Of a stretch of 64,000 bases of DNA, positions 2,989-54,130 are shown piece by piece; the stretch's first letter is position 1, and every line of letters begins with the position of its first letter. The DNA comes from Bispira polyomma (Eukaryota), in contig OZ287758.1 in assembly GCA_965649765.1 (NCBI GenBank), positions 20,956,001 to 21,020,000 of the forward strand, given 5' to 3'. The notes below the pieces were generated by a model, which had not been told where the DNA came from, did not search any database, and was given only the letters and a program-made list of their open reading frames with translations. The translations under genes were made by a program, and so were the position numbers.

Positions 2989-3269
2989 TTTAAATTTTGG
3001 ATATTTAACGTCTACTCTAGTGCTTGTTTAGGTTATATTGGGATGGGTAGTTGGAAACACTGGAGGAAACACTGTATACAGCTGATCAAGTTTCTGCACT
3101 CAAACCAGTGGTCCACAGCAAGAAACTACCACCTTTCCTACATTGGCATTGATGAGAGTCGAACCCATGCCAGCTGGTCCCAGAGGTGAGAGACTTGCGA
3201 TTGTAAAGCGGTCCCAGAGGCGAGAGACCAGTGATTGTGAAACGCAATGATTGCTAACCACTAGGCCCC
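2989..3269 (-). mobile_element. tRNA-derived SINE family A, copy 1
   Basis: High similarity to the copies at 12688 and 15487. TSD TTTTTGAGGAA (2978-2988, 3270-3280). Internal ~34 nt duplication of GGTCCCAGAGG.GAGAGAC. Confidence 0.85.
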
Positions 3270-12687: not shown

Positions 12688-12943
12688 GGGATGGCGGTGC
12701 CCAAGTGGTTAGCAAGCGTTATGCTTCACAATCACTGGTCTCTCACCTCTGGGCAGCGTGAGTTTGAATCTCGTCGATGCCTATGTGGGAAAGGTGGTAG
12801 ATCCTTACTGTGAGCCGCTGGTTTCAGTGCAGAACCTTGACCGATTGTATGCAGTGTTTCCTCCAGCATTTCCAACTACCTGCCCCAATATAACCTACTA
12901 AAAGGTATTAGAGTGGACGTTAAATATCCAAATTCAAATTCAA
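12688..12943 (+). mobile_element. tRNA-derived SINE family A, copy 2
   Basis: A-box-like GTGCCCAAGTGG, B-box-like GTTTGAATC, GACGTTAAA end and (AATTCA)-like tail. 15 bp TSD CTCTGATAAACTTGT (12673-12687, 12944-12958). Confidence 0.9.
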
Positions 12944-13434
12944 CTCTGATAAACTTGTAATCAGACCAGTATCTGGAACATTTACTGTTTATACCAATAC
13001 TTTATAAGAGACCTACTTGCATGTAACATTGCTATTGAACATTTCCAATAATATTCTGTAAACCAACAATAAACTACCCACTATTTCTATATGCCTGCAA
13101 TGATTTATTTTACGTCAGATATGAAACTTTCATGTCATAATCATCCGGCTTGATTTGTTTGTTTATGATATGACTTGAGACGGAAATACGGGATTTAACT
13201 AGAAATAAATATGGAACATTGGTGTGACAGGCAGTCATTAAGGTAGAATTTCTTGTTTAAATGACAATACCATGTCATATCAATGCTTTCTAGTATTGAT
13301 AATTCCATTCAAAGATTATTTCTCAAACAATAATGGAGAACAAATCTATGTCATGTGATTTGATGACATTTGGAATGATATGTTTATGTGATTTTATGTC
13401 ATCCAGAAAACAAGGATAGTCTTTGCATTGAAAA

Positions 13435-15119: not shown

Positions 15120-15470
15120 CATGTCACGACTTACAAATCTGTTGCCTTTCAACAACCATGATACCTTGCCACTTGTCTTTCCTTTAGAGAGGAAAGAGAC
15201 TTTCTGTTTCCTCTGTTAAAGTCACCAAGTGGGTTGGATCTAGATCTTTCTAAATCGCTGCTCCAATGTTAGTCTCCGAATTGGGCTGAGATCATTAGCA
15301 GCACTTTCCGGGTTTAGGTGAAAACTCAAAACCTATCTCTTCATACTCGCTTATCAGCCTTTGTTCTCCCTCCCTGTATACCCCACATCTTTTCTTACAA
15401 ACTGGTGAAGCTTTTTTTGACTTCTCTATTTGTTAATTAATTCTGCTGTTTTGCTTTAAAAATGCCAAAT
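15120..15470 (+). mobile_element. L2-like LINE 3' end fragment, same family as 34985-35370
   Basis: Shared AGAGAGGAAAGA, ATCTAGA.CTTTCT.AATCGCTG, CACTTTCC.G and CTATCTCTTCA.ACTCGC blocks. Confidence 0.65.
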
Positions 15471-15486
15471 GTTTTAAAAATGCAAT

Positions 15487-15733
15487 TGAATTGGGATATT
15501 TAACGTCCACTCTAGTACCTGTTTAGGTTATATTGGGACAGGTAGTTGGAAACGCTGGAGGAAACACTGCATACAGTTGATCAAGGTTGTGCACTGAAAC
15601 CAGAGGCCCACAGTAAGGAACTACCACCTTTCCCACATAGGCATTGACGGGATTCGACCTCACGCCGCCCAGAGGTGAGAGATCAGTGATTGTGAAGCGC
15701 AATGCTTGCTAACCAGTAGGCCACTGCGGCCCC
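15487..15733 (-). mobile_element. tRNA-derived SINE family A, copy 3
   Basis: Head GGGGCCGCAGTGGCCTACTGGTTAGC and B box GGTCGAATCC on the minus strand. 14 bp TSD TTTAAAAATGCAAT (15473-15486, 15734-15747). Confidence 0.9.
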
Positions 15734-19565: not shown

Positions 19566-22420
19566 GGTGATAAAGTCGTACACATATTTTATTCAGGTCT
19601 CACATTGGTCTTTTGATTACACTCTAAGTCTAATAGCATAGTTAGTTTACTAAAAAGGTTACTAAAAAGGTTAGTTAATCCCAGTACCCTAACACAAAAA
19701 TATGTTGGTAAATTTACTCAGAAAAAAGCTTCACAGTGCTTTTGTAGGATTCCCAAAAACGTATTTAATATGTGATAATTATGTACTCAACACTGTGGCC
19801 TTTAATGCAGACTGTGTCTTAGTCCTTATGTAAGAATAACCCAATTACTGAGTCTAAGAAAGCTCCCCTGTATCCTTCTTGTCTGTGTAGGAATAGCTTT
19901 CCTGTGTGTCTCTCACAGCTTGACAATAAAATAGACCAATCTGGATGACAAGGTAATGCCATCATTAATCATAAGCCATAGCAATGAAGATATACGTTTC
20001 AATTTTGGCAGAGACCTTTATGGCCTAAATTTTATTTGTGTTAGCTAAAATACCATTGAGATACAAGATATAATGTTTTCCATAATTCATAATAACAATA
20101 TGGAACTAAATTATCTCAACAATACCTGAAATATAGGTGTTTGAGTTCTTCTATAACTTATATGTCATAGACGTTGTCATAGTATCATGTTATGGTGATA
20201 CATAAAACATATTAAAATAGTGCACACTTGGTTATCACTAGGGGGACAGACATTTACCACATGGAGGTTCACTGTAAAGATATACAGACCAACTGTAGAA
20301 ATATGAAGAGTATTTGTATTTATCTTTATTTCTATGCATCACGAACAGCAACAGTGTCTAAGAATGAGAACTCACCCCATAGCCATATCTTATATACATA
20401 TGGCCATTGACTTTTTTGTGAAAAGCTTTTAGCACACAATAGCTTCTGTGGGAAACAATAAATCTAACATGGTACATTACAAAAGATCATTGGTACTATC
20501 AGATAAAACAAGGGCCATTACATTAAATAACAGTCAAATCAACTTACTGGCTGGATCAAAGAAACAAGAGGTTTAACCTCCAGCCTTTTTTATAAATATT
20601 AATTGTCACCATTTGGTCTTAAATCAATTTATATAGGTAATATAAAATGCCATTGTGGTACATTTATTACTCCACATTAACTAAAACTAACAACTTTCAA
20701 AGTTTATAAAACTTCAGATTTTGGCAACCCTGAAGTGAAACGATATACCATAAGGTATCAGTGGCCGTCGCTATTTATGGACTCCTATAAAAGCTGTCAC
20801 AGTCTAGTGAGCAGATGCAGCTATTAGAAGAGCTGGTGCTATGTCACCCTATGGGGTACTTATCTACTTCCTCTCTCACACTCATTTTACCATTATAATG
20901 TCTAGTAATGGACTGTATTTTTTAACAAGTTTTATTGTTGAATATTGCATGTAAACTTAATTGCAGCCGCTTTCTAAATTGCTGACGTCCTGGCCATTTG
21001 AGTATTGCAATAGTTTTTCTAGTTAAGTTTGAGTTTAAAGCCAATTTCAAACAAGTCTTATGTCATATCACGACAGACAGTTTACTGGTGGAGAAAACAG
21101 AGCAGGTTAGTTGTTCAGAGGTAGTTCTGCTCTGAAAACAACCAGCCTTCAGCCAAACTACCAACAACATTTCCACATACACATCAGGGTAGAGATTCGA
21201 ACTAGCGAATGCAGAAATAGGACGTGTGTGTAGATAATATATGTTCTCATAAATATACAAGAATCTATATTTTAATTGTCTTAAACCATTGCAAAGTCTT
21301 GTGAAAGTGAACTAATTCCAGACTAAAATTTTCCATACAAACAAAAATAAAGGAAAACATTCAAAGAAAATGATACATCTCTGATCTCTGCTCTGACCCG
21401 ATACAGTGAATGAATTAGAATAGTAAAGAAAGCATGCGTGTGAAGCTGACAGGTTCAATGTTCAAAGGATCATTCTTTCAGGCCAATTGCTCAAAGGTAA
21501 CTGCACCATTGTTAAATTAAATCAAATGAACATTTCGAACAGTTAAAAGCAGAGTTTGAGAATGAAATGATCTATTCTACAAAGGGATGTTTGCTACAAA
21601 GGTCGATGAAAATCTCTTCTCAAAGAGGCCTTCTATGGCAAGAAACCCCAATGCATTCAGTCCATAATGAAAAGCAAAATGAAAAAAAAAAAAAAAAGAT
21701 TCAAAGACGCCAATAGAATTGAATGATTATGACTGGTGTCTATTGAAGTGGAACAATCCAGCTCTTAGATACCCTCTCCGGCTTTGGAAGAAAGGTCCCA
21801 CAGGGCACTAGTTTACGCCTTACTCATTCTTTGGATGAATGTGTATTTTTAGAGGTGGTGAAAGAAATGATGGAGTAGTGTCTTACAGGTGTTTTGTTCA
21901 GTTGAATCCCATTCTCCATCCCGCAAAAAGCATGTATCTTGTACATCTCTCGCAATTGTGTTTAAAAGCGCTTCATTTGAGGTTTCTTCTCTCATGTGGA
22001 ACAGGGAAAGTAAGCTCTTGATATGGAATAGAAACAGATTATTCCTTGAAGAATATGGGTGTTTTGTTGAAGTAAAGGAATAAGAAGGGATGTGCATCTA
22101 TCCAAAGCCTAAAAGTAGTGGTTATTGTATTTATTTCAAATACACTATACAAATAGATATATCTTCCTGTTCATAATTTAAATTAGAAAAAATTCCAAGA
22201 AAAAAGGCAAAGTTATAATATATATGTTTGAGTAGATAGATATATTTTTATTATACTGACATTTGTGCTGTACAAGTACATCCATACAAAGGCTTTACAT
22301 GTTCCATTAATTTCAGCTCTGAACCTTAATGGTGGGCTGACGCCTATGCGACAGCCCCCCTCAGTTCTGGTGGCAGGTCACTGGGAGGCTAATTAAGCCA
22401 CCTGGGGTCACGGGGGCAAG

Positions 22421-22456
22421 TATAAAAGGGATTGCCGCCAACAGGCGCCATCATTA
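22421..22456 (+). promoter_or_regulatory. Core promoter of the YR retrotransposon (TATA box plus Inr-like element)
   Basis: TATAAAAG at 22421-22428 and TCATT at 22451-22455, ~30 nt downstream and ~110 nt before the gag ATG. A GC hairpin GGGCTG-A-CGC-CTAT-GCG-A-CAGCCC lies upstream (22334-22357). Confidence 0.65.
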
Positions 22457-22560
22457 CTTAAAAACAGTTCATAGATACAAGTGTTTTACAATTGGGGCTT
22501 TTACTACCCTGGGCTTTTACTACCCAGATATTGCTTTACATTTTAATTGAATGTGTAGAC

Positions 22561-23556
22561 ATGCCTAAGGAATACCCGTGTAGTGTATGTTCTGGTCAGC
22601 ACGGACGTCCAGTTGGAAAGAAATGTAAATTTAATCCGTTGGACAGCGTTGCTGATGAGGTGGCTGCCGTTGATCCTGCTGTGCCTGCTGGTTCTGATTC
22701 CGTATCTAGTTTGATACTTCAACAACTGGTCGTGATGAATGAGAAGATGGACAGCATGGATCAACGAGTACAAGCTACTGAGCCGGCGCTGTGTAAACCC
22801 AGCGCTCAGGCATGTAAAACAGTTACTAAATCTGTATCTAATGTCCCTAGTGTTAGTGAACCAGTGTTTGAGGCCGTTGTGCCCTCCCTAGATTACCTAC
22901 GTTCAAATTCCGGCTTACAAAGTCAGGTAGACCAGCGCTTGCTGCAACTGCAACAACTCCATGATTTAACGGGAGGTAAACTGAAATCCCAAAGGGGTGG
23001 CGCGGAAGCTCCCGTTAAACGTCATGTTGATTGGCCACAAAATTTTGTTTTATCTGGTGTAAAAAAGGTCAGACCCACTTACGATGACCTTACTTTGGTT
23101 CAGTTTGTCTCCGGGTTCGTTCGCTGTACGCAAGAGCAAAAAGACTCCCCTGTCCGCGAGGCCATGTTGGAATATCTGGCATGCCTGATGGATGACGCCC
23201 ATGATTTTTCGTGGGACGCCGCCAAAGCCGCTCACGCCATTTTGTTAACCAACATGGAGATGGACCGATTGAATTGGACGGATGTCGAAAAGGTCGACCG
23301 GATAAGGTGCGCTCATGCACAGCGTCATGTAACGTCCTCAGCTAGTGGGTCTGGCCTTTCTAAAAGCAATGTTGGCAGTAGGGGTAAAGCATTGGTGAAA
23401 ACAGTTGGAGTAAACTGACGATTCTTCCAGGAAGGAACGTGCAAATTTGATGCCAGCCATCGCACGTCTGGACAGTGGTTCAAACACTGCTGTGAGAGCT
23501 GTGGTGGCACGCATCAAACCAAGCTATGCTCCAAAAAATCGTTCTCAAAAAACTAA
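22561..23556 (+). CDS. gag: Gag-like ORF1 with N- and C-terminal Cys/His zinc motifs, interrupted by an in-frame TGA at 23416-23418
   Basis: ATG 22561 gives MPKEYPCSVCSGQHGRPVGKKC (CX2CX3HX7C), then a coiled-coil-like stretch and a KLKSQRGG...WPQ...YDDL core. Beyond the TGA the same frame continues RFFQEGTCKFDASH...HCCESCGGTHQTKLC to TAA 23554-23556. Confidence 0.8.
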
Positions 23557-25691
23557 GGGGCCACTGCAGTACTGCAGTGGCTGCTAAGAAACTGGTACCT
23601 AAAACCTGCTCTAGGGTTGTATATAATTCTACTTTTAGGGATTTTAAACTGTTTCATCATGTGTGTTGTAAATATAGTATGTATACTGGACCCCCACTTA
23701 ACCGGTCATACCGGGATGTGTTGCAACAGGGCCTTGTGGTTTCTGATACTGAGACTTGTGGAAACCGGGAAATGGGGAAAGTTAACCCTGTTTCTGTTAA
23801 TAGAAACCCCCAAGGTAGCAAACTTGTGTTCCATAATACCTCATTGCACAAGGTGTCGGGAAGGAGGCATTCACCCGTGAAAGTGTTAAATACACCGGCT
23901 GACAGGCGACGTGTGAAAACAAATCACCAAAAGGTGTTAAGGAAAACACCTTTGGGTGGTGCGAAAACATCCGTGAATAGGCGGGTCGGTAACCATGCAA
24001 ACCGGGTGTTACAAAATCAAGCAATTGTGTCCAAAACAATTGAATTAAGTGATGGCGAAGGGTGGCCTAAACTGCTGGGTCCTCCGAGTGTGAAAACGAT
24101 TGGTGCGGGTACCACTCCAAGTAATGCTAACAATATTGGGTTTCGCCTTCCCATTCAGAACCGGTTTAGTGGCTTAGACATTCCTCATGTAGAACTACCT
24201 GACTCGAGTGACACGTTAGGTAAGGTCGATTTCACACCTATTCCACTTCCTAAATTGAGTGACACGTTACGTAAGGTCCATTACACACCTATTCCACCAC
24301 TTAACAAGAGATCTAACCCGTGTGATGACAAGTATGTACTGGACCTCTCAGGAGGCCTTAATAAGAGACAGCGCTTAAATGCAGCTAAAGATAATGTGAC
24401 CTACAAGTTGTGGGATATACAGAATAGTGGGAAGTATGGGTTCATACCAACTAGTTCCTGGGGTACCCCAGTGATTGATTGTTCCCATAACCAATTGATC
24501 ACCGACGTGTTTACACTGCATAAGTCCCTGAAATTGGATGGGAGACCAAATTATAAGGGTTTACAAGTCCCCATACACACCCAACTGACGGTCCCTGCCT
24601 GGGAAAAGTATTTAGCGAATTATTGGGATTGGGAACTCCCCTTACTGATAAAATTCGGTTTTCCTCTTGACTGTAATGAAGAACATGAGTTCAAGTCTGA
24701 CTTGAACAATCATGCTTCAGCCAATCAGTATCCTGAACATGTGAACCATTACCTGAAAGAAGAATGTTCTATGGGTGCTATGTATGGACCTTTCGTCCAT
24801 CCCCCCATTGATGATGTGCACACATCCCCATTTATGACTAGAGACAAATCAAGCTCGGTTAACCGACGAGTTATAATCGATCTGAGTTGGCCCATCGGTC
24901 ATTCGGTTAATGCAGCCGTGTCATCAAATTCGTATCTGGACAAGGAATTTGTACTTACTTACCCTTCTATAGATGACATAACCCAACAAGTGTTGCAAAA
25001 CGGTAGGGGCTCTTTGCTATTTAAAGCGGATATTAGTCGCGCATTCCGTCACGTCACCATGGACCCCAGAGACATCAATCGTCTGGGCTTATACTGGGAC
25101 GGCTACTATCTCGACGGCTCGTTGCCCTTTGGCTACCGACACGGTTCAGTGATTTTTCAGAGAATTTCTGACAGTATAAGGTATATAATGGAAGGTGAAG
25201 GCCATCAAATCACCAACTATATCGACGATCTCTTATGTTCTTCTGTTCCCTCAAAAATCTATAAAACGTACCACCGACTGCAGGCCCTTTTGGCCGAGTT
25301 GGGTTTGACTCTTAGCAAGAAGAAGCTGGTTCCTCCAGCCACCCGGGTAACCTGCCTAGGCATAGTTATAGATACAGTTCGGTTCACTACATCGATACCA
25401 GAGGACAAACTAGCTCAGGTTCAAAAAATATGTGGCAATTGGAGTGATAAAAAGCAGTGTACTAAGCGGGAGCTCCAATGTTTATTGGGTCCTTTGCTAT
25501 ATATTTCTAAATGCGTGAAGTACTCACGGTTTTTTCTGAATCGAATGTTGCAACTCCTACGAAGCAATCACCACAAAACAAGTATCAAAATTAACCCTGA
25601 CTTCAAAAAGGACCTTAACTGGTTCATTGAGTTTCTCCATAAATACAATGGGGTGATATTTTTCATCATGCCCCCATCACTGACATTGTAG
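23526..25691 (+). CDS. pol: Pol ORF: reverse transcriptase of DIRS/Ngaro type
   Basis: Motifs FGFPL, NHASA, SPFMTRDK...RVIIDLSWP...SVN, KADISRAFR, LPFG, catalytic YIDD (25218-25229) and CLGIVIDT, preceded by ~270 aa of basic low-complexity sequence. Confidence 0.93.
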   Translation: MLQKIVLKKLRGHCSTAVAAKKLVPKTCSRVVYNSTFRDFKLFHHVCCKYSMYTGPPLNRSYRDVLQQGLVVSDTETCGNREMGKVNPVSVNRNPQGSKLVFHNTSLHKVSGRRHSPVKVLNTPADRRRVKTNHQKVLRKTPLGGAKTSVNRRVGNHANRVLQNQAIVSKTIELSDGEGWPKLLGPPSVKTIGAGTTPSNANNIGFRLPIQNRFSGLDIPHVELPDSSDTLGKVDFTPIPLPKLSDTLRKVHYTPIPPLNKRSNPCDDKYVLDLSGGLNKRQRLNAAKDNVTYKLWDIQNSGKYGFIPTSSWGTPVIDCSHNQLITDVFTLHKSLKLDGRPNYKGLQVPIHTQLTVPAWEKYLANYWDWELPLLIKFGFPLDCNEEHEFKSDLNNHASANQYPEHVNHYLKEECSMGAMYGPFVHPPIDDVHTSPFMTRDKSSSVNRRVIIDLSWPIGHSVNAAVSSNSYLDKEFVLTYPSIDDITQQVLQNGRGSLLFKADISRAFRHVTMDPRDINRLGLYWDGYYLDGSLPFGYRHGSVIFQRISDSIRYIMEGEGHQITNYIDDLLCSSVPSKIYKTYHRLQALLAELGLTLSKKKLVPPATRVTCLGIVIDTVRFTTSIPEDKLAQVQKICGNWSDKKQCTKRELQCLLGPLLYISKCVKYSRFFLNRMLQLLRSNHHKTSIKINPDFKKDLNWFIEFLHKYNGVIFFIMPPSLTL
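23547..23582 (+). promoter_or_regulatory. Putative -1 programmed ribosomal frameshift signal (gag to pol)
   Basis: A_AAA_AAC at 23547-23553 in gag phase, immediately before the gag TAA. Spacer TAAGGG, then stem GCCACTGCA/GTAC/TGCAGTGGC (23560-23581). Pol is in the -1 frame. Confidence 0.75.
24206..24300 (+). repeat. In-frame 51-nt tandem duplication in the pol N-terminal region
   Basis: SDTLGKVDFTPIPLPKL / SDTLRKVHYTPIPPL; copies start at 24206 and 24257. Confidence 0.85.
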
Positions 25692-26137
25692 AGTTGGATG
25701 CCTGCCTAACAGGCATGGGAGGAGTGTATGGCAAACAAGTATATTACCTTCCCATTCCTGCTGCTATGCACAAACATAATATTGCTTCATTGGAGATGCT
25801 GAACATTCATGTGGCTTTGAGATTGTGGGGCAAATACTGGCAAGGACGTAGACTGTTAATTAAATGTGATAACCAGGCTGTTGTAAGTGTCCTTACTCAT
25901 GGTAGAACTAGAGATAGCGAATTAGCCCTGTACTCGCGAAACATATTCATGCTGACTAGCCAGCTCGATGTAGACATACAGGTGGTTCATATTCTAGGAA
26001 ATGACAATACCACTGCTGACCTCTTGTCTCGTTGGACAAATTCAACCAAGGATAATGTTCTCTTACAGGAGCTGGTGGGCAATGCCCAATGGTGTGCCGT
26101 GACAAAGGAGCACTTACTGCTTAATCACCACATTTAG
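25661..26137 (+). CDS. RNase H domain of pol, out of frame with RT by one missing base
   Basis: DACLTGMGG, NIASLEMLN, CDNQAV and NTTADLLSR give the D-E-D-D RNase H catalytic set. Adding one T to the run at 25659-25663 restores ...NGVIFFHHAPITDIVELDACLTG. Confidence 0.88.
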   Translation, partial: FHHAPITDIVELDACLTGMGGVYGKQVYYLPIPAAMHKHNIASLEMLNIHVALRLWGKYWQGRRLLIKCDNQAVVSVLTHGRTRDSELALYSRNIFMLTSQLDVDIQVVHILGNDNTTADLLSRWTNSTKDNVLLQELVGNAQWCAVTKEHLLLNHHI

Positions 26138-26192
26138 ATATCCCTTGTCTGGTTGCATGCTATTATGTTGATCAGCCTTTACAAATGTTACT

Positions 26193-27206
26193 TTGTCTGC
26201 TTTGTCTTGTGTTATAGCTAGAACTCCCCTGCAGCAGTTGTTATATCAAAATGCAACGAAGAAGCTTCACCTGGCCTTCTGCAGGTCTACAGACAGATCT
26301 TATACTGCGATGTATAGGGTGTACCAAGCTTATGCTTCCTTCTTGGATCTGCCTTGTGACCAGGTGACAGCTATTGATCTTCTTGCTTTCTTAGAATTCT
26401 TACACTTTAACTCTGTAAAACCTGCCCATATGGCTAATTATTTATCTGCTATTAAAGCTAAGAGTATCGTATACAATGTGCCCATTCATGCCTTCAGTGA
26501 CCATCGCTTGGCTTACTATCAAAAGTCTGTCCAATTGGCTGCCCCCTTAAATGTTCAGCTCAAAAAGATTATAGACATACCTCTTCTGACGAGTATTGTC
26601 AATGTCTCCAACACCACTTACATGGGTCCTATCTTTACAGCTGTGTATTTGGTCAGCTACTTTTCCTTCCTTAGGTTATCCAACTTAGTACCCCATTCCT
26701 GTCTTCAGTTTTCTGCTTTGAGACATCTATCAAGGGCTGATGTTATGTTTCACAGGGACAAAGCTGTCCTTTTGGTAAAATGGTCCAAAACAATGCAGAG
26801 TAATAATCAGATTAGGCTCATTACTATCCCACGTTTGGTGGGTTCCCCTCTTTGCCCTGTGGGGTCACTGCAGGCAATTATGGCTCTTACTCCGTCTGAA
26901 CCTAATTCACCCTTATTTCAATTGAAAGACAAATCTCACTGGGTTCCGCTTACTGACACCTGTGTCCGCAGGCATTTCAAAACGATACTTGCCAGGCTCC
27001 AGTTGCAGGATTCTGGCCTCACACTGCACGCGTTCCGACGTTCGGGTGCCACTTTTGCCTTTAATCATAACGTCAGCATTCAGAACATCCAAAAACATGG
27101 CACTTGGACGTCGGATTGCGTGTGGAGGTATGTTACCGACTCAGTGGATGCGGGACAGCAGGTTTCGGACACATTTCGTCTTCATCTTGCTACGTGTTCT
27201 TCCTAG
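26193..27206 (+). CDS. Tyrosine recombinase (phage-integrase family) of the retrotransposon
   Basis: Catalytic set intact: R (FLRLSN), K (WSKT), HxxR (HAFRR), W (HGTW), Y (VWRY). N-terminal helical core-binding region (STDRSY...FLEFL...NYLSAI). The annotated start is TTG; the first ATG is at 26310. Confidence 0.93.
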   Translation: MSALSCVIARTPLQQLLYQNATKKLHLAFCRSTDRSYTAMYRVYQAYASFLDLPCDQVTAIDLLAFLEFLHFNSVKPAHMANYLSAIKAKSIVYNVPIHAFSDHRLAYYQKSVQLAAPLNVQLKKIIDIPLLTSIVNVSNTTYMGPIFTAVYLVSYFSFLRLSNLVPHSCLQFSALRHLSRADVMFHRDKAVLLVKWSKTMQSNNQIRLITIPRLVGSPLCPVGSLQAIMALTPSEPNSPLFQLKDKSHWVPLTDTCVRRHFKTILARLQLQDSGLTLHAFRRSGATFAFNHNVSIQNIQKHGTWTSDCVWRYVTDSVDAGQQVSDTFRLHLATCSS

Positions 27207-27816
27207 CTTCCTACGTGCTGGGTTGGGTGTTTCTACTCAAAATTTTGTCTATATTTTCATATTCTAGATAATTATGTAATTTTTGCTTTACATGTAGTCA
27301 CATGCTAGTCATGTATAGTGTCATATAGAATTTAAATTACTATTTCACTTGCTAGTCATTTCATGTTACAACTATAAAGTTAACTTCACAGAGTAGTATT
27401 TTATTTCCTAGTAATTGTATGCTACAACTATTAATTCAACTTCATGAATTAACTGTTTCATTAAAAGGTAATACAATCTGTAATTAACTGCAAAATTACA
27501 ACTTAACTATTCTTCTATACATTTTAGGGTCACCTCATTTTTAATTCCCCTATGGGTTAAAATTTTAGTATACTAACCTGTATTTAAGGTGATCTTTAGC
27601 CCCCTTTTGTAGTCTAAATTATAAGATCATCTCCATTTATAAGTACCCTACGGGCTTTGTCATTTCACTTATTTAAACTGTCTTGGGGTGACCTTATCTT
27701 GTTCTTGGAAGTTATGTAAAATATTTTATTACTTTCACTCAATTTAGTATGACTTAAAGTTACAAATTATCATGACCTTAAGTCACGTTGTATATAGAAG
27801 TTTAACATAGACTAAC

Positions 27817-27822
27817 AATAAA
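27817..27822 (+). terminator. Candidate polyadenylation signal of the retrotransposon
   Basis: AATAAA ~80 nt before the inferred 3' end, followed by pyrimidine-rich sequence. Confidence 0.45.
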
Positions 27823-28284
27823 ATATTTTACCGCATTCTGCTTACTTACTATCTTGCCTTCTTGACCTCTGACCCTTTGGCCTGTCACGCGGGAAATGGG
27901 CTTATAAGTTTACAAGTGAGATACTAATTCAATGTATGTATAAAGATAAAACTATACAAACATGTCACTGTACACTGACTATCATATTTATTCTTGACAT
28001 TTTATTTCCTTTCTTATTTTATAATTTAAAAGCATTGATATCGAGTCAAATTGTTATTTCATCCTTTAAGGTGCTTGTTCTCTTAGGGATACTCTTATAG
28101 CATAGGACTGATCGTCATCAGTAGGCAATGACATGTCCATCTCTTTCCCAATATTGGTATCCCCCAGTAACCATTATGTCACTACTAGAAGTCACCCAAG
28201 AGACCTTCTGATCACAAGACAAACATCTCAACCTGCTAAACCACGGGGAACCTTGAAACTACATACATTGACTAAACATACAGG

Positions 28285-39420: not shown

Positions 39421-41404
39421 ACCACACCTTCTTCAGAGTTAAAACGATAAGCTGCTACAAAAAAACTGATCTTCCCAAACTAAGGTGTATGGACAACGTG
39501 TACATGTGTATGGAAGCTGTACTTTAGTACAGTGAAATCTTGTCACTTGTCTCCAGATCCTATTAACTACAGTGTCTGCCCTCAATCTCTGACTTCAGTG
39601 TTAGCTGGGGGATGAGAATAAATGGCTGACAAATGGGTAATATCCGGTTCTAGATAGTGTTACCACAAACTGCTACATCTTACACACACTGTTACACACA
39701 CAGACATACACCCAAACAGAGTATAACTAAAAGTCAGAGTTTGGAGCAAGTTGTGAAACGATCATTAAGAGGTTGATTTTAACAATTCTAGATTTTCTTT
39801 TGAAATGTATGGTTACATTGATTTTGACTTTGTAAACTTTGATTTTAGCATTTATTTCATCTTTAAGACAGACACTGAATGAATTCTTCTGCATGTATTT
39901 TAAATATGATAGCATTGCATAGATATATAACATCACCTGTACTTCAGATATTTTGTGTTTTATGTGATAGAATGTTTAGACACTACTATGTAATTAAATT
40001 AAAGCTAAGCTATTATTTAAACTCTTTGGCATACACACTTAATTGCTTTAGCTGTTTCCTAAGCACATAAGCAGTAAATACATTGACAGCTAGAATTGAT
40101 CAGTCATTATCTAAATTGTCCACTAATTCATTGGCATATAATACATATACCAAAAACTACATTATGACAATTATTATGTATTGTTGAATCTATCTTAACA
40201 AAAAGGATTTATTAAGGGACATAATGTTCATCAAATTAAAAATAACTAAAATCTAACCACATGTATTTTTCCAACAAAACGTATTTGTTGAAACTGTATT
40301 GGGATAAACTCAAAACTTTTAAGTACCTTAACTAATCTAGTTCATGGAATTTAATGCTAAACTTGAATAGACACATGAAAAGGTAATGCCACATGCAGAC
40401 AACTGGGCTATCAAACAGTCTGCTATCAACTCAATGTCATATATTTGCAAGCTCCATAAATTATTCACTTTCATTACCAAAGTGCTTTTATAATGGTCCA
40501 TAACTTCACACACTGACAAGTGGAGAGGGAGTGTTTTTATGGTATGGAGTCATTTTTTTTATTAATGGCCCCTTTATTGGTCATTATTGCATTCCTATAC
40601 ACCCAATAACTAGAGCATGGACGTTGTTACTAGGTAAGCACGGTGTTTTACATACTGGCATCTATATGTGACTTTTATTCTGTTTTATATTATTTATATT
40701 GTTTTATATTAAAATAATATTATAAGCAAAACCTACACTTTCTGCAGATGAAATAACTAATATCACAAGTTTAAAACATATGCACTATCTGCAGTTTACA
40801 TGTGATGTAGTTGACTAATAGCTAATGCAAGTGATCCATTATTCAATGAATAAGAAGTCTTACTAATATCACCAGCATATTTTCTTTCCTAAAACCCCTT
40901 TGTATAATATCCACAGGTGCTCTTGATTCATACTATACATACTTTTGACAACTATACATAAATAATGTGAAAATAAATGGCCAGTGTTGGCAAACTGTTT
41001 AAAAGTTCTGTTGAGTTTTTAAAACTGTTATTTCTTCCAGACACATAGAAAAAGAGATCATTTTTTTCTTATAACAAATTCTTTGAATCACAATAAATTG
41101 ATGCCAATATTATAACAATAAATAAGTTTAAAGGAAAACATGTCACAACTGTATGGAAGTACATAGAGTACTGACATATGCATGTCGATAGATGTAGTTC
41201 TAAAAGACTGAAATGACCCCAACACTGAACCCTTTATATGGCCAATCAGGATTAACTGACTTGTTAAAAGTGCATATGAAATTCATGTTTACATCTCCAT
41301 TCATTATGTGTTTCCAGGTCAACGATTCAGCCATATATATATATGTATGCTATAAACGTCATCAACACAGGACCATAAAGGGCCAGCTCACACTGCTAAC
41401 TACG

Positions 41405-41672
41405 ACTTTGACCTTGTCCTGGCCCTGCCCACACTTCTAACCATGATTATGACATTGTCCTGGCCCCGACCACACTGCTATCCATAATCATGACCTTGTC
41501 CTGGCCCAAGCCACACTGCTAACCATGACCTTGTCCTGGCCCCGCCCACCTGTTACCCATAAAATTGTCCTGGCCCCGCCCACCTGTTACACATGACCTT
41601 GTCCTAGCCCCGGCCACCTGTTACGTATGACCTTGTCCTAGCCCCGCCCACCTGTTACCCATGACTTTGTCT
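41405..41672. repeat. GC-rich minisatellite, ~32-40 nt unit, about 8 copies
   Basis: Repeats of ATGACCTTGTCCT(G/A)GCCCCGCCCAC(CTGTTAC/ACTGCTAA)CC. Confidence 0.9.
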
Positions 41673-44600
41673 TCACACCCTACCTATCATTGCTGTCAGC
41701 CCTACTTAATGTATAAGACTCCAACATTGAAATGCTGACCTTTGGGTGAATTAAGCTAACCATAAATATATATATTTACAGCCTGTTGTATGTGTGTATA
41801 AATGCCATGTTAACATTTCTCTGATTTTTGTCGGGCGCAGCATAATGTTATTTTCATTCTACAAAAGGTGCCCCCATTGATAAGAACGTTGTCATATTAC
41901 ATATATGATGGAAGGCCTTTACGTATTGGTTGAAAGCAATCAACCCTTTCAAACTGAGGGATGTCAGATTTATTGTTATCAGGCACATCCTGCCTGAGTA
42001 TATAGTGCCGATATCAATGTTAGTTTATACTCCGATCCCTGGCTGGCCTCCACTGATACTGCTTTTAAGTAGTACTGATACAACAGCAAAACTGTAATCC
42101 TGCTTTGAACTTTTGTAAACTGTATGAAGTGTAAGGAAGCTTAAATATAATATGCTTACACTGTGTGCCACAAGTAAGTCAGCTTTGTGTAAATATTCCT
42201 TGCTTTACTGTAAGACATACATTATATAAATATTCTGAGGACCCCTGGCGAGACTGTTACGTTATTACACGAGTAGCAGTGATTAGTTGATGGCTGTTTC
42301 ATAATGCCATATTTCATGGCTTACTAAGATTTCTAGGAGTAAATACTAACTGCACTACACTTCACACTGCAGGGGAAACAACCAGTCTAGTCAGAACAGA
42401 ACATCAATCTGTGTCATTTGTAACCCTTAGTCACTTGTTGTGTTCTTATTCAACAGGAATTCCATAGTTTTTTCTCCTGTATTCCTCTTCTTATGGTACA
42501 ATCACATAGAACTCTTCAATCAAGTGGGGTGTTCGCTCGCTGTCCATGCCTTTGTGTTATATTATGGCATGTTTTTCTGTTCGCCAAGTTTAAGTCTAGA
42601 CATCTTGGCACGGGTCCCAAATAACGGGCCAATAAAACTCACTGTCGTATTGGACCTGTGGTCTTTGTGTACTTGCATTTGAAAAAAAAAAACAATCTCA
42701 GCTCAAAATATTAGAAAATATGTATTGAGTGGAGATTTAATCCCACCTTACATCTAAGTGTGTCACCATGGCAATATTAAGAAAATACGGCCGCTGATCG
42801 ACATCAAGTACCTTCTCTACTTTTCTACAAAATTTAACTAGTGGGATTCGATTTTATACATTCAGAGGTGATACACTAGTGCTTGTAAAACAAAATCTGC
42901 CACCAGGACTCATTTATTTGCATGTTCACATTTTAGTAAAAATTGTCATTGACAAAACTGTTAGATGTGTTCAAACTCACAGATCCTTACTTGGATGGGC
43001 ACTGCGTGAAATATTACATCTCTGGGATCTACATAGCATTCTCAGTGGGTACAAAATACATTGATCACTGAAATACCAGACATATTGCTCTAACCTCAAA
43101 CTCCTACAAATACTCAATTTGAATACTTAGTGCCTGTCAAAATAATAAACTGTATCTTGGTAAAAATTCAGTTTCAAAGGAAATCGTTTGTTACAATATG
43201 GTATTTGAAGCCCATAAATTCAACGTAGATGCACTGAATTACTTGGACGAATTAAAAGGGCATGATTTATTCATGAGTAAGTGGCCCTGAAATATTATCT
43301 TATTTCCTGGGAAAAAGTTGATATGATTAAATATTCTCCAGTGAAAAAAAGACAAAAAAAAACACTCTAATGAAAACCATGTGGACTTCATTAGGAACAC
43401 AAAACATTTTGCAAATTACAAATTACACCACTGCTGGTGGCGTGTAATGGAAATTAATTGTACGTTTTTCTGCTTCAAAACATCCATTTGTCTATAGAAA
43501 ACTGTGGAGATTTTGGTATGTTAACTTTTTATAGTTACATCACAATGGAAGAATTTAACAAAGTCCATTTCTATTTACAATTTATTAAGCACAAAAATAA
43601 TCTAATTATATTGTTTTTTTTATAGTCTTTTTCACCACAGTTTTGTCCAGAAGTTGAGTTGATAAAAATATCAACTTCATTGCAATGACCCTTACTAAAT
43701 TAAGTTTTGGACAAAGAAATACAATACAAATGCTAAGCATTGTATTTAAATTTACAATCAGCAAATTGACCCACCTGGTATTTAAAGTGCTAATGTGAAA
43801 AAAGTGTATTCAAAGTGTTAATAAACATTATCTTGACTACCCATGTAGAGCTGACCAGCATCAGTTACTGTCATTCTACTAACCAAGGTCAGAGACTAAA
43901 GGATGTCCATAAACATCCCAAAGGTTGTTCAGCCTGTCCCTGGTGATCGGATCCAATGCCTCCCACTGGGCCATAATTTAAAGGGAAATGTGTGATTTTT
44001 TACATATACATTGTTTTTACATTCATTATGTGTAATTTATAATGTGTTTTGATACAATATACCAGTTTGTACAAAGGAAATGTGGTTGTGTGTTCCTGTT
44101 TAATATAATTTAATTAACTCAACAAAAATTGCTGATATCTTTGTTGATCGTTTCTTTAAATATTTTAAATGGACTATTTTTTAACAACTACCTACCAAAC
44201 TTTATCATCCTATTCATTTTGTACAATGTGATATTGACCAGGTTTAAGATCAATTTTTTTTAAATCTTCTTTGAAAAAGTACCATACTCCACAACCTTGA
44301 CCTGTTAACTGTGTTTACTTTCAGATAAAGGTCAATATTTGGATAGTATACATTAGTGCATATATTCTTACAGTTTGCGTGGCCATAATAATGTAATACA
44401 CACCTATTCCCTTTACACACAGTAAACCTGATGAGGGTTCTTTAACATCCCGACCTTTGTACCCTCAACCCATAGCTTACAAACAATACATTTTAATAAC
44501 AGTTTCTCCATTCATTGTCCAAAAATCATGCAACTGATTTACCTCAGAGTACACATTCTGCCCTCTCATATTCTTCATTCGAATTACCCTTTATTCAGAC

Positions 44601-49000: not shown

Positions 49001-52000
49001 ACTGATTGTTATATGTAGGTGGTAGTTGAGAAACCCCGAAAATGATGCTGGCATATGTTCTTACACTAACTCACTAACATTAGTGCAGTAATAAAACTAA
49101 GACACACTTTTAGAAAGGAGGTTCATGTAGGACAGTACAGAGAGTGTGGATGTCACTGACTCTTTACACTGACTTAAAACCTATAACTGTGAAATATTAA
49201 AGCTCCCAGTGAAAGTGACATGGGGGACTTGTTGAGGGTTCCAACGAGTCCAGTGTGAAGTCCTATGTACTATAAACCTTCTCCAAACTGGCTTGTATGG
49301 GTAGATTTAAGCACATCTCTAATACACAACAAACATAACACAGGGACATATTCCCAGTCCTGTTCTGAGTTATGACACTTGGTACTTGGTGACATAGGTC
49401 CCTGAGGTTCATGTACAAAACAGGATACTGCTGTAGATTTTAGGCGATAAACACAAATAGGACCAGCAAAGATGCATATCTAAATGAATGTGTTAGGCCA
49501 GATCACTATTTTCCTATGTGAATTTTATAATTTTTGTAATTTAATAAAGAGTAGTATCCCTTTACAACAGACATGAAAGTGATATATGGTGATATAACCT
49601 AAACATATAGCAGTATTATTTATATTTTAAGCTTACACTAATGACACAAAATTCAGCATGGTTTTTGATATAAATGGACTAATCTTACTGTGTGGGGCTT
49701 ACAAATACAATCATAACAAGGATATATACCATGTCAACCTCTGATTTATAATGTTGATGTATCCCTGAGGTACACTCATAAAGCAGGATATTTAGGACAT
49801 AAACATGTATAAATCTGGCCACATAATCATCAAACATCTTAAATTTAAAATCATACTTACACTCCAATACTGCTGTACATATTTGTTTATTAATTGGAAT
49901 AACATAAGGATGTTGTCATTTATTGTAAAAGAGATTTTAGTATGGAAATGTGAATATGTACTAATATTATAGGTGTCCTTATTGTATTACAAGATATAGC
50001 AGAACATAGTTTGAGTTTCTTGTAAAATTAAAAATCAACATGTGATTGTACCTGATTACCTTTCTTCTGACAATTGATTAGAGAGTATTCGACTAAAATG
50101 GGAAATCATATCTTATTATGTGCTTATGGAGGACTCAGTTGTAAGCTTCAGAGTGAAGTAAACTTGATAATATTTAAGCATAAAGCAGTATTACTTATGT
50201 TTGAGCTTACTCTAATGATATACAGCAATTTGACATTGTTTTTAATATAGCTGGGATATCGATCATATCGAAATATGCCTCACAAACAGGATCTCACAAA
50301 CATATTGATGATAAAGAAACCATAAAAGAGAGGGTCATACCCCATTATTTGCATTACAGCACTGATTGGCATTCCTTATAAAATATGCCGCAAGCACTCT
50401 TATTATAATCACATGCAATAATAGAATTACATGCAGTAAATACAAAACAAAAAATTTTCCCAGCCCCAAAGGACTTATATGTCACTTGAAATAAATAAAC
50501 AATATCCGATGGTTGCTTATCAGTTTTTTAAATTTAGTTGATTTTAATGATTATATTAATTAGTGGAAGAAACCAGTGCTGAAGTACTGGAAACCACTGA
50601 CCTACAGCAAGTATCAGACAGACTGACAGACTGATTTTCACCCTCAAAATGATATGAGGCACACTTATGTTTTTATAGCATTTGATGAAATGATCCACTT
50701 TAACTATGCTTTAAACCACTATCAATTTTAATTACAATTTATTTAATGTATTGATTTTCAAAGGATATACCTTTATTTTAGACGTCTAACCTAATGAACT
50801 TGGCACAGCTGACATAAAATTACTCCAAATATCATTATAGTGAATAAATATATCTGGTTTACAAGATGGCCCTTCATACCTAAATGTGAGAACATGACGT
50901 TTTATGTTATTTGTAGCCACATCTGTGAAAGACAACCCCCTTCTTGTTGGACTGTATCAAGGACAGAGGGGAGATCCTGTTCATAGCTCTCTTTAATCAC
51001 AGTTTCATTCTCTATCTACTGACTCCATGAAATATTAAAACCATAGATGATTGCGAACAACGGTCTAGCTAACTGGATCTGACAGAATCAGTTATTATGC
51101 AGAGTGTTTTCACTATTTTTTTGCTGGTGTAAATTTTTACTGTTACTTTACGTGACATGAAACTACTCCAAGTAATTATAGTAACATACAGCATGTGGCA
51201 TTGTGATGGCAGAGGATTCTCCCAATCATTCCTGTTGAATTTTAGAAAACTTTTAAATCTTGTATTTCTTAAACATACTGCATATATTTAGTTTGTACTT
51301 GCAATTGTACTTGTTCATAGTTTTTGTTGTGGAGGTAAAGAAGATTGTTAATGATAAAAAAAGAGTCTTATTTCCTGCTTGTTGTGTCTCAAACTGTACT
51401 TCATGAGAAGAGAAGAAGATCCATCACTCAAGTGAGAACAACTAGAACTGGAGAGCTACAACAATAGTCATATATCACTTTAGGGGAGTTATATGTGATT
51501 GTTTATTGACTTAACTATTTTTTATATCTCTTTATGTATGTGCTGTCAAGAATTTTCGATTTTTTAACTGTGGCTCTTTGGCAGTACTTGAAAAACATAC
51601 TTTTGACTATGATTTGTTCAACACACCACAGTATGTAGAAGCTGCATACAGTTCAGAGTCACTTTTAGGTAGAGCACCGTGTTAAAATACCACCAACTAA
51701 GAGCTACAGATATTCTAGCACCATCAACCTACTACAGCTATTATCAAATACATTCTTAGGGTTGTGGTTTTTCTTTAATAGTGCTTGGGTATTTGATATG
51801 AATATAATCCACTTATTTATATTTATCATTTAATTAACACAGAAGTGTAATGTTGAGGTAGGGAAATTTACAACAGCACTAGGTACGTTATCATTTATAC
51901 TCTAATCAATTGATCAACCATTAATCATGATGCTAATACATAACTGAATTACTTGTCATTTGTAGGCAATAGTGTGTTGACATCTTGTCGGATTATGCTA

Positions 52001-52341
52001 TCCACCAATGATGATTGTGGTGTCACATGAAGTTGAGGAGCTCCCCAGCCATTGGTAGAACTGAGAACCTTTTGATCACCAGACCAACTTCCTAACCACA
52101 AAGTATGTTTGTGAATGTTTATATATCCGAAAAAGCAAATGCTGAATTTGAATTTGCCTTTAATCCTAAGGTATCTAGGTGTGGTAATAATTGCGGAATC
52201 ATTTTCATTTGTTTACATAGAAGTGGAAGGTTGACACACAATGTTGGTCATTGTATTTCAAGTTCTGAACAATGTCAGATTGTTCCCTAAATTTTTTCCA
52301 CCGCACATTGTACTGTTAGCAGGAATCTAATTACACTCAAG

Positions 52342-53175
52342 AATCACTTGTAGCTGTATTCAGCTGTATACTACATCGTTTATTTTACTAACTATTCATT
52401 ACAAACTTTACACGGTTATAGTTTCTTTGATGTAGGCCGACAATCACACATATTATGCTTACACTTGAAGAACATTTTACATTGTTTAACATCATTCTCA
52501 GGAATGTACATGGACTTATTATTGGCAAATATGTTAAGAAAGATCATTACATAAAATTGACAAAAGTGAGTGATCAACAACCTAGTAACGATCCAATAGA
52601 TTAAAGGTAAATGTTTGTTTTTCTTCCAGCATGAAAGCTTTTTATGACATGTTATAATTCAAAGATACAAACATGTAGTAGTCTCTTTTGAACATTACTG
52701 GGGTGTATTGTACCACTGTATGACTGTTTAGGTACATATGCCATATTCTAATACTAATTACTTTCTTATGTTCAGTTGATTCTGTATGTTGCAAAACATG
52801 TGGAGTTTCTACATAGGGAACAATTTACAAAGAAAAATATAGAGATCATAAGTTTTTAATAATCACTTGTAGTTGTATGCAGCTATATGCTACATCGTCT
52901 ATTTTACTAACTTTCCTTAACAAACTTCACACGTTCATAGTTTCTTTGATGTTGGTCGACAATCAGACATATTACACTTGAAGAACGTTTTTCATTATTT
53001 GTATAGCATCATTCCTAGGAATGTCAATTGACTTATTATTGGCAAATATGTTAAGAAACACAGTGACGATCCAATAGATTTAAGGCAAATGTTTGGTTTT
53101 CCCTGCATGAAAGCTTATTATGATATGTTATAATTCAACGATTACAACATTTAGTATTATATTTTGAACATAACT
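52342..53175. repeat. Nested younger duplication (~350 nt twice) inside unit 1
   Basis: AATCACTTGTAG.TGTAT.CAGCT.TAT.CTACATCGT at 52342 and 52861, collinear to TTTTGAACAT. Only one diverged counterpart in unit 2 (~58620-58830). Confidence 0.85.
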
Positions 53176-53623
53176 GAAAGTCCTTGTTTTTTTCTCTAAA
53201 GTTTATAAACTCATTTAGTAAAGAGGAATTTCTACTATGTGGATGGTTATGACCTTAAAATGTACTACATTAAAATAGATACTATCTTAGCCCCTGCCCT
53301 ATCTCTTTACCAAATTTCATGTTAATGATTTTTCAAATATGGCTACCTATTCAAGATCCTTACTGAAAGCTCTGCAAATGTGATAAGGACATCTGTAAAT
53401 GTAGAATTTGAGATCAGGCATGATTTAAGTGTAATACCTTTAATTAATATGGCTTGATAATTTTATCTATGAGGAAACTCTCTTAAAAAATATGACATTT
53501 TTGATAACGCAATACAATTATATTTTTAATGGTTTAACCACACATTTAACAAATGTATTCGAATGTAATTTAAATATCTAAAGGGTGATTTTTGAAGTTT
53601 TAGTTTCATTTAATAAATAGAGC

Positions 53624-54130
53624 TAAGGTGGCGTTCACACTGTCTACGTTCTTAGTCCCGTTCATTCCCGTTCAGAGAATGTGTGAGAACTTGTACAAAC
53701 GTCTAACAACTGGGCGTAAATGGGGGTAGAACTTGGGCGAAGGGCAAGAACGGGAGCTACAGCCAGAAATTTTGAACATGTTCTGACAAGACATCTTCAG
53801 AGAACTTGAGAGAACTTGAGAAAATGACAGGAACAGGGCATAAACGGGAGTTCAACTACTCAGAACTTGTGTAAACGGGGCTTAAACTGCTTCTGTGATC
53901 TGGCCAGAACTGGAGAGAACTTGAGAGAACTTGAGAAAGCGTAACGTAATCTGGGCATAAATGTGGCTAAATGGGTCTAAAACGGGGCATAAAGGGGGGA
54001 TGCAAATATATGCACATGAAAATTTTTTTTGTCTTTTCTCTCCCGATCTGCCAAATTCTTCAGGTCTTGTGTTAACGGCTAGCTGGGGCTAAGCCGGGCC
54101 GTGAACTTGGACAATGTGATCGTCTCTTTA
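53624..54130. mobile_element. MITE, probably PIF/Harbinger-like
   Basis: Imperfect TIR TAAGGTGGCGTTCACACTGTC / GACAATGTGATCGTCTCTTTA, with many internal AGAACTTG and AACGGG repeats. Absent from the paralogous duplication unit. Confidence 0.7.

Follow-up and report, generated by a model that had tools for sequence, protein, structure and literature searches.

A putative programmed −1 ribosomal frameshift signal at the gag-pol junction of Ngaro-like retrotransposons in Bispira polyomma

The stretch of Bispira polyomma DNA analyzed here (64,000 nucleotides [nt]; assembly GCA_965649765.1, contig OZ287758.1, positions 20,956,001 to 21,020,000), referred to below as the window, contains one copy of a retrotransposon filed, by its structure, as a Ngaro-like tyrosine-recombinase (YR) element. 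A slippery heptamer and a predicted hairpin lie at its gag-pol junction and, judging from their sequence and their conservation among relatives, very probably form a canonical programmed −1 frameshift signal for making a Gag-Pol fusion (Gag-reverse transcriptase [RT]-RNase H). The parts of the junction, including open reading frame (ORF) 1, are as follows.

22561..23556, + strand: ORF1 of 331 codons, gag-like in its position and broken by a stop in the window copy
23547..23553, + strand: slippery heptamer A_AAA_AAC, in gag phase
23554..23559, + strand: 6-nt spacer that opens with the gag stop codon; length kept, sequence variable
23560..23581, + strand: predicted stimulatory hairpin of 9 base pairs (bp) with a variable 4-nt loop
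23547..25691, + strand: pol, in the −1 frame, with a conserved N-terminal block, a variable linker and the RT (YIDD; RVT_1, E 1e-8)

Gag was read from the ATG at 22561, via a TGA at 23416-23418, to TCA AAA AAC TAA (TAA at 23554-23556), and the frame of pol (23496-25691) is −1 relative to it. An earlier reading made from the sequence alone (the sequence-only reading) had claimed the heptamer in gag phase, the 6-nt spacer and the −1 frame of pol at these positions, and every letter was verified. The spacer is 6 nt long, or 5 nt if an additional G-U pair (23559/23582) is counted, and it measures 6 to 7 nt across families. The perfect 22-nt palindrome described in that reading is present at 23560-23581, with 9 bp and a GTAC loop, but it is found in only 1 of 29 sibling copies; conservation extends to the stem and not to the loop, which varies. 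The folding energy of the hairpin is −21.7 kcal/mol (z, −4.8), a value equaled by 0 of 200 shuffles.

The heptamer followed by the 5' arm of the stem occurs once in the window, where 0 occurrences are expected. In the 1.04-Gb genome, the pattern heptamer-N5-9-GCCACTGC yielded 612 matches versus 7 for the reversed control, so the junction pattern is not due to chance. When 20 of the matches were picked for differing spacers, 15 proved to be the same element type and 5 an unrelated repeat. The latter (L032, L035, L039, L046, and L049) carries AAAAAAC and then a CAAGATGGC-like motif, with no gag or pol similarity. With AAAAAACGANTAR as the pattern, fewer matches were obtained than with its control (1230 versus 1740), and it was dropped.

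The junction has the features of canonical eukaryotic −1 signals, namely, an in-phase X_XXY_YYZ heptamer, a spacer of 5 to 9 nt and a predicted 3' structure (PMC3542737), together with a downstream ORF that is open in the −1 frame from the site and has no start of its own. A_AAA_AAC ranks with the heptamers most prone to shifting (PMC5009743), and 9-bp hairpins stimulate −1 shifts (PMC3203594).

If the signal acts in this way, most ribosomes would finish at the end of gag and yield Gag (331 amino acids [aa]). A minority of ribosomes, held up by the hairpin while Lys and Asn tRNAs occupy AAA AAC, would slip −1 in tandem, giving the junction S-K-N-L-R-G-H-C and, in unbroken copies, a fusion of ∼1,190 aa. 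Frameshifting would set a low Pol:Gag ratio and would package the RT through its Gag part.

Animal long terminal repeat (LTR) retrotransposons cleave Gag-Pol with their own protease. For its part, the present element encodes none that can be recognized, as the sequence-only reading had proposed: no protease family of Pfam matched the proteins of the element or its siblings, and no D[ST]G motif was conserved (it is present in 2 of 15 pol frames, both from one family). From this lack of a recognizable protease it would follow that the fusion is not processed; cleavage is improbable unless the linker is cut by a protease of the host. YR elements are described as lacking a protease of their own (PMC3783388). 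Animal LTR retrotransposons have the same class of signal for the same purpose, a low-ratio Gag-Pol fusion, and −1 gag-pol heptamers were present in 28 of 51 of them in a 2003 survey, as summarized in PMC5009743.

A_AAA_AAC is also the gag-pro site of mouse mammary tumor virus (MMTV) and human T-cell leukemia virus (HTLV) (PMC12789967), the type to which the signal had been assigned. The likeness extends to the identical heptamer just before the gag stop, the short spacer, the 3' structure and the next ORF in the −1 frame. It ends there, since MMTV has a pseudoknot, a protease ORF and two shifts, whereas the junction described here has a simple predicted hairpin, RT/RNase H and one shift. Unlike MMTV, the element lacks an LTR, a DDE integrase and env.

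The claim that the RT is made as a Gag-Pol fusion is supported by comparison for the group, but it does not apply to the copy in the window, which cannot make the fusion and is a defective relic. The TGA at 23416-23418 stands 43 codons upstream of the heptamer, so ribosomes would not normally reach the frameshift site in this copy. The stop is found in 0 of 29 siblings, all 29 of which have a Cys codon at that place. The other letter at position 23418 is also present in contigs from three public runs (contigs of unspecified kind, representing family variants only).

Conservation of the junction

The sibling alignment that the sequence-only reading had proposed as a check bore out the signal. 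The heptamer was present in 29 of 29 siblings and the stem was able to pair in all of them (loops: GTAT, 24; GTAG, 4; GTAC, 1), and both were kept across families as well, where the stem covaries.

To sample loci independently of the signal, a zinc-finger DNA pattern that excludes the junction was used, which gave 1400 matches versus 125 for the control. From the first 100 listed loci 70 were examined, that is, the first 30 plus 40 more in list order; loci already sampled, a tandem array and some apparently unrelated loci were skipped in choosing those 40. Fifty-five of the 70 were gag positive, representing ∼33 families at 85% nt identity. AAAAAAC was present in 46 of these 55 loci, and 36 of the 46 kept at least 6 of 7 core pairs. 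The elements are highly abundant and diverse in the genome, as illustrated by the number of zinc-finger pattern matches and by the thousands of first-look candidates obtained with gag queries.

Codon usage at the end of gag was analyzed in the 32 of 55 tails that read Lys-Asn-stop, a selection made at the protein level. The Lys codon was AAA in 32 of 32 (background, 354/665), the Asn codon was AAC in 32 of 32 (background, 159/399), and the wobble base preceding them was A in 31 of 32 (background, 660/3133). Protein constraint alone would not predict such use of AAA-AAC with a wobble A.

The reading frames around the site were compared in 41 junction-blind, signal-bearing loci. The −1 frame was free of stops for 40 codons downstream of the site in 34 of the 41 and upstream of it in 3, while the +1 frame was open over the same distance downstream in 1.

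In an alignment of 27 hand-chosen rows, from which copies with damaged stems had been left out, 93% of the cells were paired and three of the nine pairs had changed on both sides. The covariation score was reached by 0 of 500 shuffles, and slid controls were 18 to 48% paired. The core of the stem, CACTGC/GCAGTG, was almost invariant across families whose Gags are ∼35 to 55% identical. The four loop positions differ freely from family to family, an argument against a conserved second stem (pseudoknots are beyond the scope of the folding programs applied).

A more distant clade, found via a gag homologue from another genome, showed the in-phase heptamer in 28 of 30 loci, with AAAAAAT in one more. 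Its gag stop lies one codon later and its spacer has the same length. With the stop further away in this clade, a single-tRNA shift triggered by the stop codon is less likely. In most of its families the stem reads GGCACTGCA-loop-TGCAGTGCC; two family types, the L216 type and L222, keep the heptamer with a different downstream sequence. In the former (L216-L221 and L240), the predicted structure is weaker and has a long loop, a segment of which, judged by eye, possibly pairs further 3' as a pseudoknot. In L222, an unrelated short hairpin was seen ∼11 nt behind the heptamer (one copy, by eye).

Among 54 gag homologues from other genomes, 38 end in K-N, K-N-E/D or K-N-E plus a short tail, and none was fused to pol (search range, 341 to 2000 aa). 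Scans with the gag alignment revealed no relative in viral contigs or in metagenome contigs.

Several observations weigh against a frameshift signal, or at least lessen the force of the evidence for it. Conservation within the close family (0/7 and 1/18 columns variable versus 26/127 and 10/78) is weak evidence, and since the families share ancestry, neither locus counts nor family counts are independent. The heptamer was missing from 9 of 55 junction-blind loci (two belong to a clade with a UAG-G junction, described below, and the rest look decayed), and the stem was damaged in 10 of the 46 loci that bear the heptamer. As for covariation, the rows had been picked by hand, without the copies whose stems are damaged; none of the six inner stem pairs had changed on both sides, and a single event probably accounts for the five G-C rows at pair 21-40. 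The structure predicted for the L216-type families is weak (−5 to −12 kcal/mol). A metagenome motif scan returned at least 118 stretches, and none of the 80 examined had gag or pol similarity, so that the support from other genomes is at the protein level only. Finally, an ATG is found near the register of the one at 23526, upstream of the site, in 9 of 70 loci of this genome and in about 9 of 120 Pol homologues from other genomes (read by eye).

Other routes to pol

Those ATGs raise the question of whether pol is translated alone, from ATG 23526 or from one 33 to 75 codons downstream, by reinitiation, internal entry or a subgenomic RNA, with the hairpin serving this initiation. In many families the first Met does lie 33 to 51 codons after the site, and an ATG stands 6 to 7 codons before the site in the window copy, in a few families and in the Pol homologues just mentioned. 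Nevertheless, we consider such a start very unlikely. ATG 23526, which the sequence-only reading had named as a start that would overturn its proposal, is private to the window copy (0 of 29 siblings), and an upstream ATG is missing from 61 of 70 loci. Where present, it overlaps the last zinc-finger Cys codon and would most simply be a by-product of that codon. The downstream Met does not form one column either (in siblings it is codon 44, 75 or 391 after the site), and in 16 of 17 family representatives the first pol ATG is preceded by a conserved block, R-x-x-Y-x-x-x-F-x-x-F-x-L. In this N-terminal block the ratio of nonsynonymous to synonymous differences (pN/pS) was 0.50, versus 0.93 in the linker (uncorrected values, with pS near saturation). 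Initiation at an ATG would also leave the AAA-AAC of 32 of 32 tails unexplained. The N terminus of pol (23583-23660) consists of the block and then Y-x-D/E-x-V/L, ahead of a variable basic linker of 200 residues; the block had no match in Pfam and is visible in Pol homologues from other genomes. Annotations that begin Pol at its first ATG miss its N terminus.

The near invariance of the stem core exceeds what pairing alone needs, as would be expected if the dyad were mainly a DNA or RNA recognition site (for packaging, dimerization, or binding of the recombinase or a host factor) and frameshifting were secondary. This seems highly improbable to us, given that the dyad always lies 6 to 7 nt behind an in-phase heptamer, that its loop is free and that its outer pairs covary. 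Moreover, other families combine the heptamer with another downstream sequence, and the UAG-G clade has no dyad. In the pol frame the core encodes His-Cys..Ala-Val, and each wobble base pairs with a first-codon base, which can explain the invariance. In the boldest form of the frameshift proposal, the invariant core would be more than a roadblock and act as a binding site, for example, for the zinc fingers of Gag, making the signal a protein-controlled feedback switch on Pol; on the present sequences we regard this as speculative and rather improbable.

In a further alternative, the gag donor at 22976, or a different one, might be spliced to an acceptor close to where pol begins. A donor in gag is indeed conserved, and an AG follows or overlaps the gag stop in most loci. 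That AG, however, sits behind A-rich sequence and has no pyrimidine tract. In 17 family representatives, the first 900 nt of pol held no conserved splice acceptor, which gives no support to a spliced pol RNA, one of the refuting conditions of the sequence-only reading; 10 of the 17 lack any pyrimidine-rich YAG in that interval, and those of the others differ in place and phase. The phase of the donor matches, rather, an acceptor before the recombinase, and splicing into pol appears hardly plausible. The two predicted sites are as follows.

22976..22977, + strand: predicted splice donor GT in gag, phase 1; present in 20/20 siblings and 11/15 divergent loci
26216..26217, + strand: predicted splice acceptor AG before the recombinase; pyrimidine-rich and of matching phase in the window and 16/20 siblings

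The recombinase is thus probably reached by splicing and not by a frameshift. Siblings differ in the phase of its frame relative to pol, all three being represented, and this speaks against a frameshift into the recombinase such as Poulter and Butler suggested in 2015 (as quoted in PMC13003380), the only frameshift proposal found.

Polymerase slippage on the A run, or an overlap produced by mutation or assembly error, can practically be dismissed: a few decayed copies have 7 or 8 A's at the site, but a run of six A's is short for polymerase slippage and the −1 arrangement is common to dozens of families, which excludes error.

A related clade with a UAG-G junction

Two junction-blind loci without the frameshift signal led to a related clade with another type of junction. 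Its RT is 37 to 41% identical, the gene order is the same, and split direct repeats were present in three of four long loci. In 66 of 75 loci of this clade (L101-L125, L166-L215, and L364-L367), gag ends in TAG-G and pol follows in the same frame. That frame was open for at least 100 codons in 47 of the 66, whereas the −1 frame was open for at least 30 codons in 1 of 66, and an in-phase slippery heptamer was likewise present in 1 of 66. An RRCCRAC motif lies 3 to 8 nt behind TAG-G in 36 of 50 loci. The 12 families of this clade fell on one side of a branch with 100/100 support in an unrooted gag tree. In L109 a sense codon replaces the TAG stop. The TTTAAAC near the gag end of the L072 family was considered as an alternative slippery site and rejected, as it is out of phase and the family has an in-frame TAG.

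With gag and pol in one frame, this clade, too, is built for a fusion, and the single stop is likely read through to give Gag-Pol, as the arrangement of the sequence suggests. The gag-UAG-G-pol layout is that of the type III readthrough of gammaretroviruses (PMC3542737). Unlike in gammaretroviruses, predictions for the sequence behind the UAG-G stop gave neither a compact pseudoknot nor a consistent strong stem; the RRCCRAC motif lies in this region.

Taken together, the two clades suggest that a low-ratio Gag-Pol fusion is required even without a protease, which raises the question of how the RT works while attached to Gag. It seems likely to us that Ngaro elements follow a retrovirus-like but protease-free program of three parts (Gag by default, Gag-Pol by recoding, and the recombinase by splicing), within which deep clades of a single genome have swapped −1 frameshifting and UAG-G readthrough for each other. 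The split parallels that among retroviruses, and the two deep clades can be told apart simply by their type of junction.

The mechanism of frameshifting itself is textbook; the element group is where no description was found. The passages on Ngaro elements in PMC9210276, PMC8547959, PMC4157794 and PMC3783388 mention overlapping ORFs but describe no slippery site. The literature searched yielded no account of a slippery site between gag and pol for the DIRS order, although Goodwin and Poulter 2004, Poulter and Butler 2015 and the 2003 survey may cover it; the word "DIRS" is absent from the examined portion of PMC5009743. In the literature found, RT production in these elements is unsettled, and the signal, common to hundreds of copies and dozens of families and reflected in protein ends from other genomes, provides a precise, short and testable site.

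Element layout and other features of the window

Alignment to 20 siblings places the copy at 22330-27898, with the following parts in addition to those of the junction.

22330..22491, + strand: repeat A1 of the split direct repeats and 5' end of the element; sibling alignments start at 22317-22330
23416..23418, + strand: premature TGA in place of the first Cys codon of the zinc-finger region at the C terminus, private to this copy
23416..23529, + strand: C terminus of ORF1, with a CCCH-like and a second Cys/His cluster; conserved Cys/His columns
25643..26137, + strand: RNase H (Pfam RVT_3 and RT_RNaseH)
26172..27206, + strand: tyrosine recombinase frame (Phage_integrase, E 0.0064; sibling, 0.0024; both below the curated cut-off)
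27224..27898, + strand: repeat B1, end of this copy, without A2 and B2

The order of genes, gag-like, RT/RNase H and YR on one strand, with no methyltransferase, is that reported for Ngaro (in the four papers cited above). No Pfam match to a methyltransferase domain was obtained in the element, in which pol closes with RNase H and the YR frame opens 35 nt further on. In 8 of 20 siblings B1 is followed by A2, a spacer and B2, giving the order A1-ORFs-B1-A2-B2 of split direct repeats. This layout is described for Ngaro in PMC8547959 and PMC4157794, and split direct repeats also occur in the related clades. The stretch 22330-22491 is repeated after repeat B in those 8 siblings and partly in a ninth. 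Between A2 and B2 the full-length siblings hold ∼480 nt of extra sequence, unlike in the Ngaro descriptions. The window copy stops exactly after B1, like 11 of 20 siblings (within the stretch fetched), possibly as the result of a B1-B2 deletion. A TATA-like TATAAAA lies at 22421-22427 inside repeat A, 134 nt upstream of the gag ATG.

From ATG to stop, ORF1 measures 331 aa in 24 of 29 siblings. "Gag" is a positional label for it. In one sibling its product matched zf_CCCH_4 weakly (E 0.059). The structure model (pLDDT, 78; pTM, 0.47) shows an N-terminal coiled coil, a helical core and a C-terminal Cys/His region, and fold searches with the whole model gave no Foldseek match at an E of ≤0.001 and a best Z of 4.9.

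In the window copy, the T run at 25659-25663 is altered in length by one base, which separates RT from RNase H; 18 of 20 siblings have one common run length and 2 differ. The run was rejected as a second programmed site, RT and RNase H being one ORF in unbroken siblings.

Elsewhere in the window, a GC-rich minisatellite with units of 34 to 41 nt was observed at 41380-41685, and a short interspersed repeat was found in both orientations at 2996-3265, 12694-12957 and 15466-15727. Patchy duplicated segments, 5.1 to 6.0 kb apart, extend over 50899-61122.

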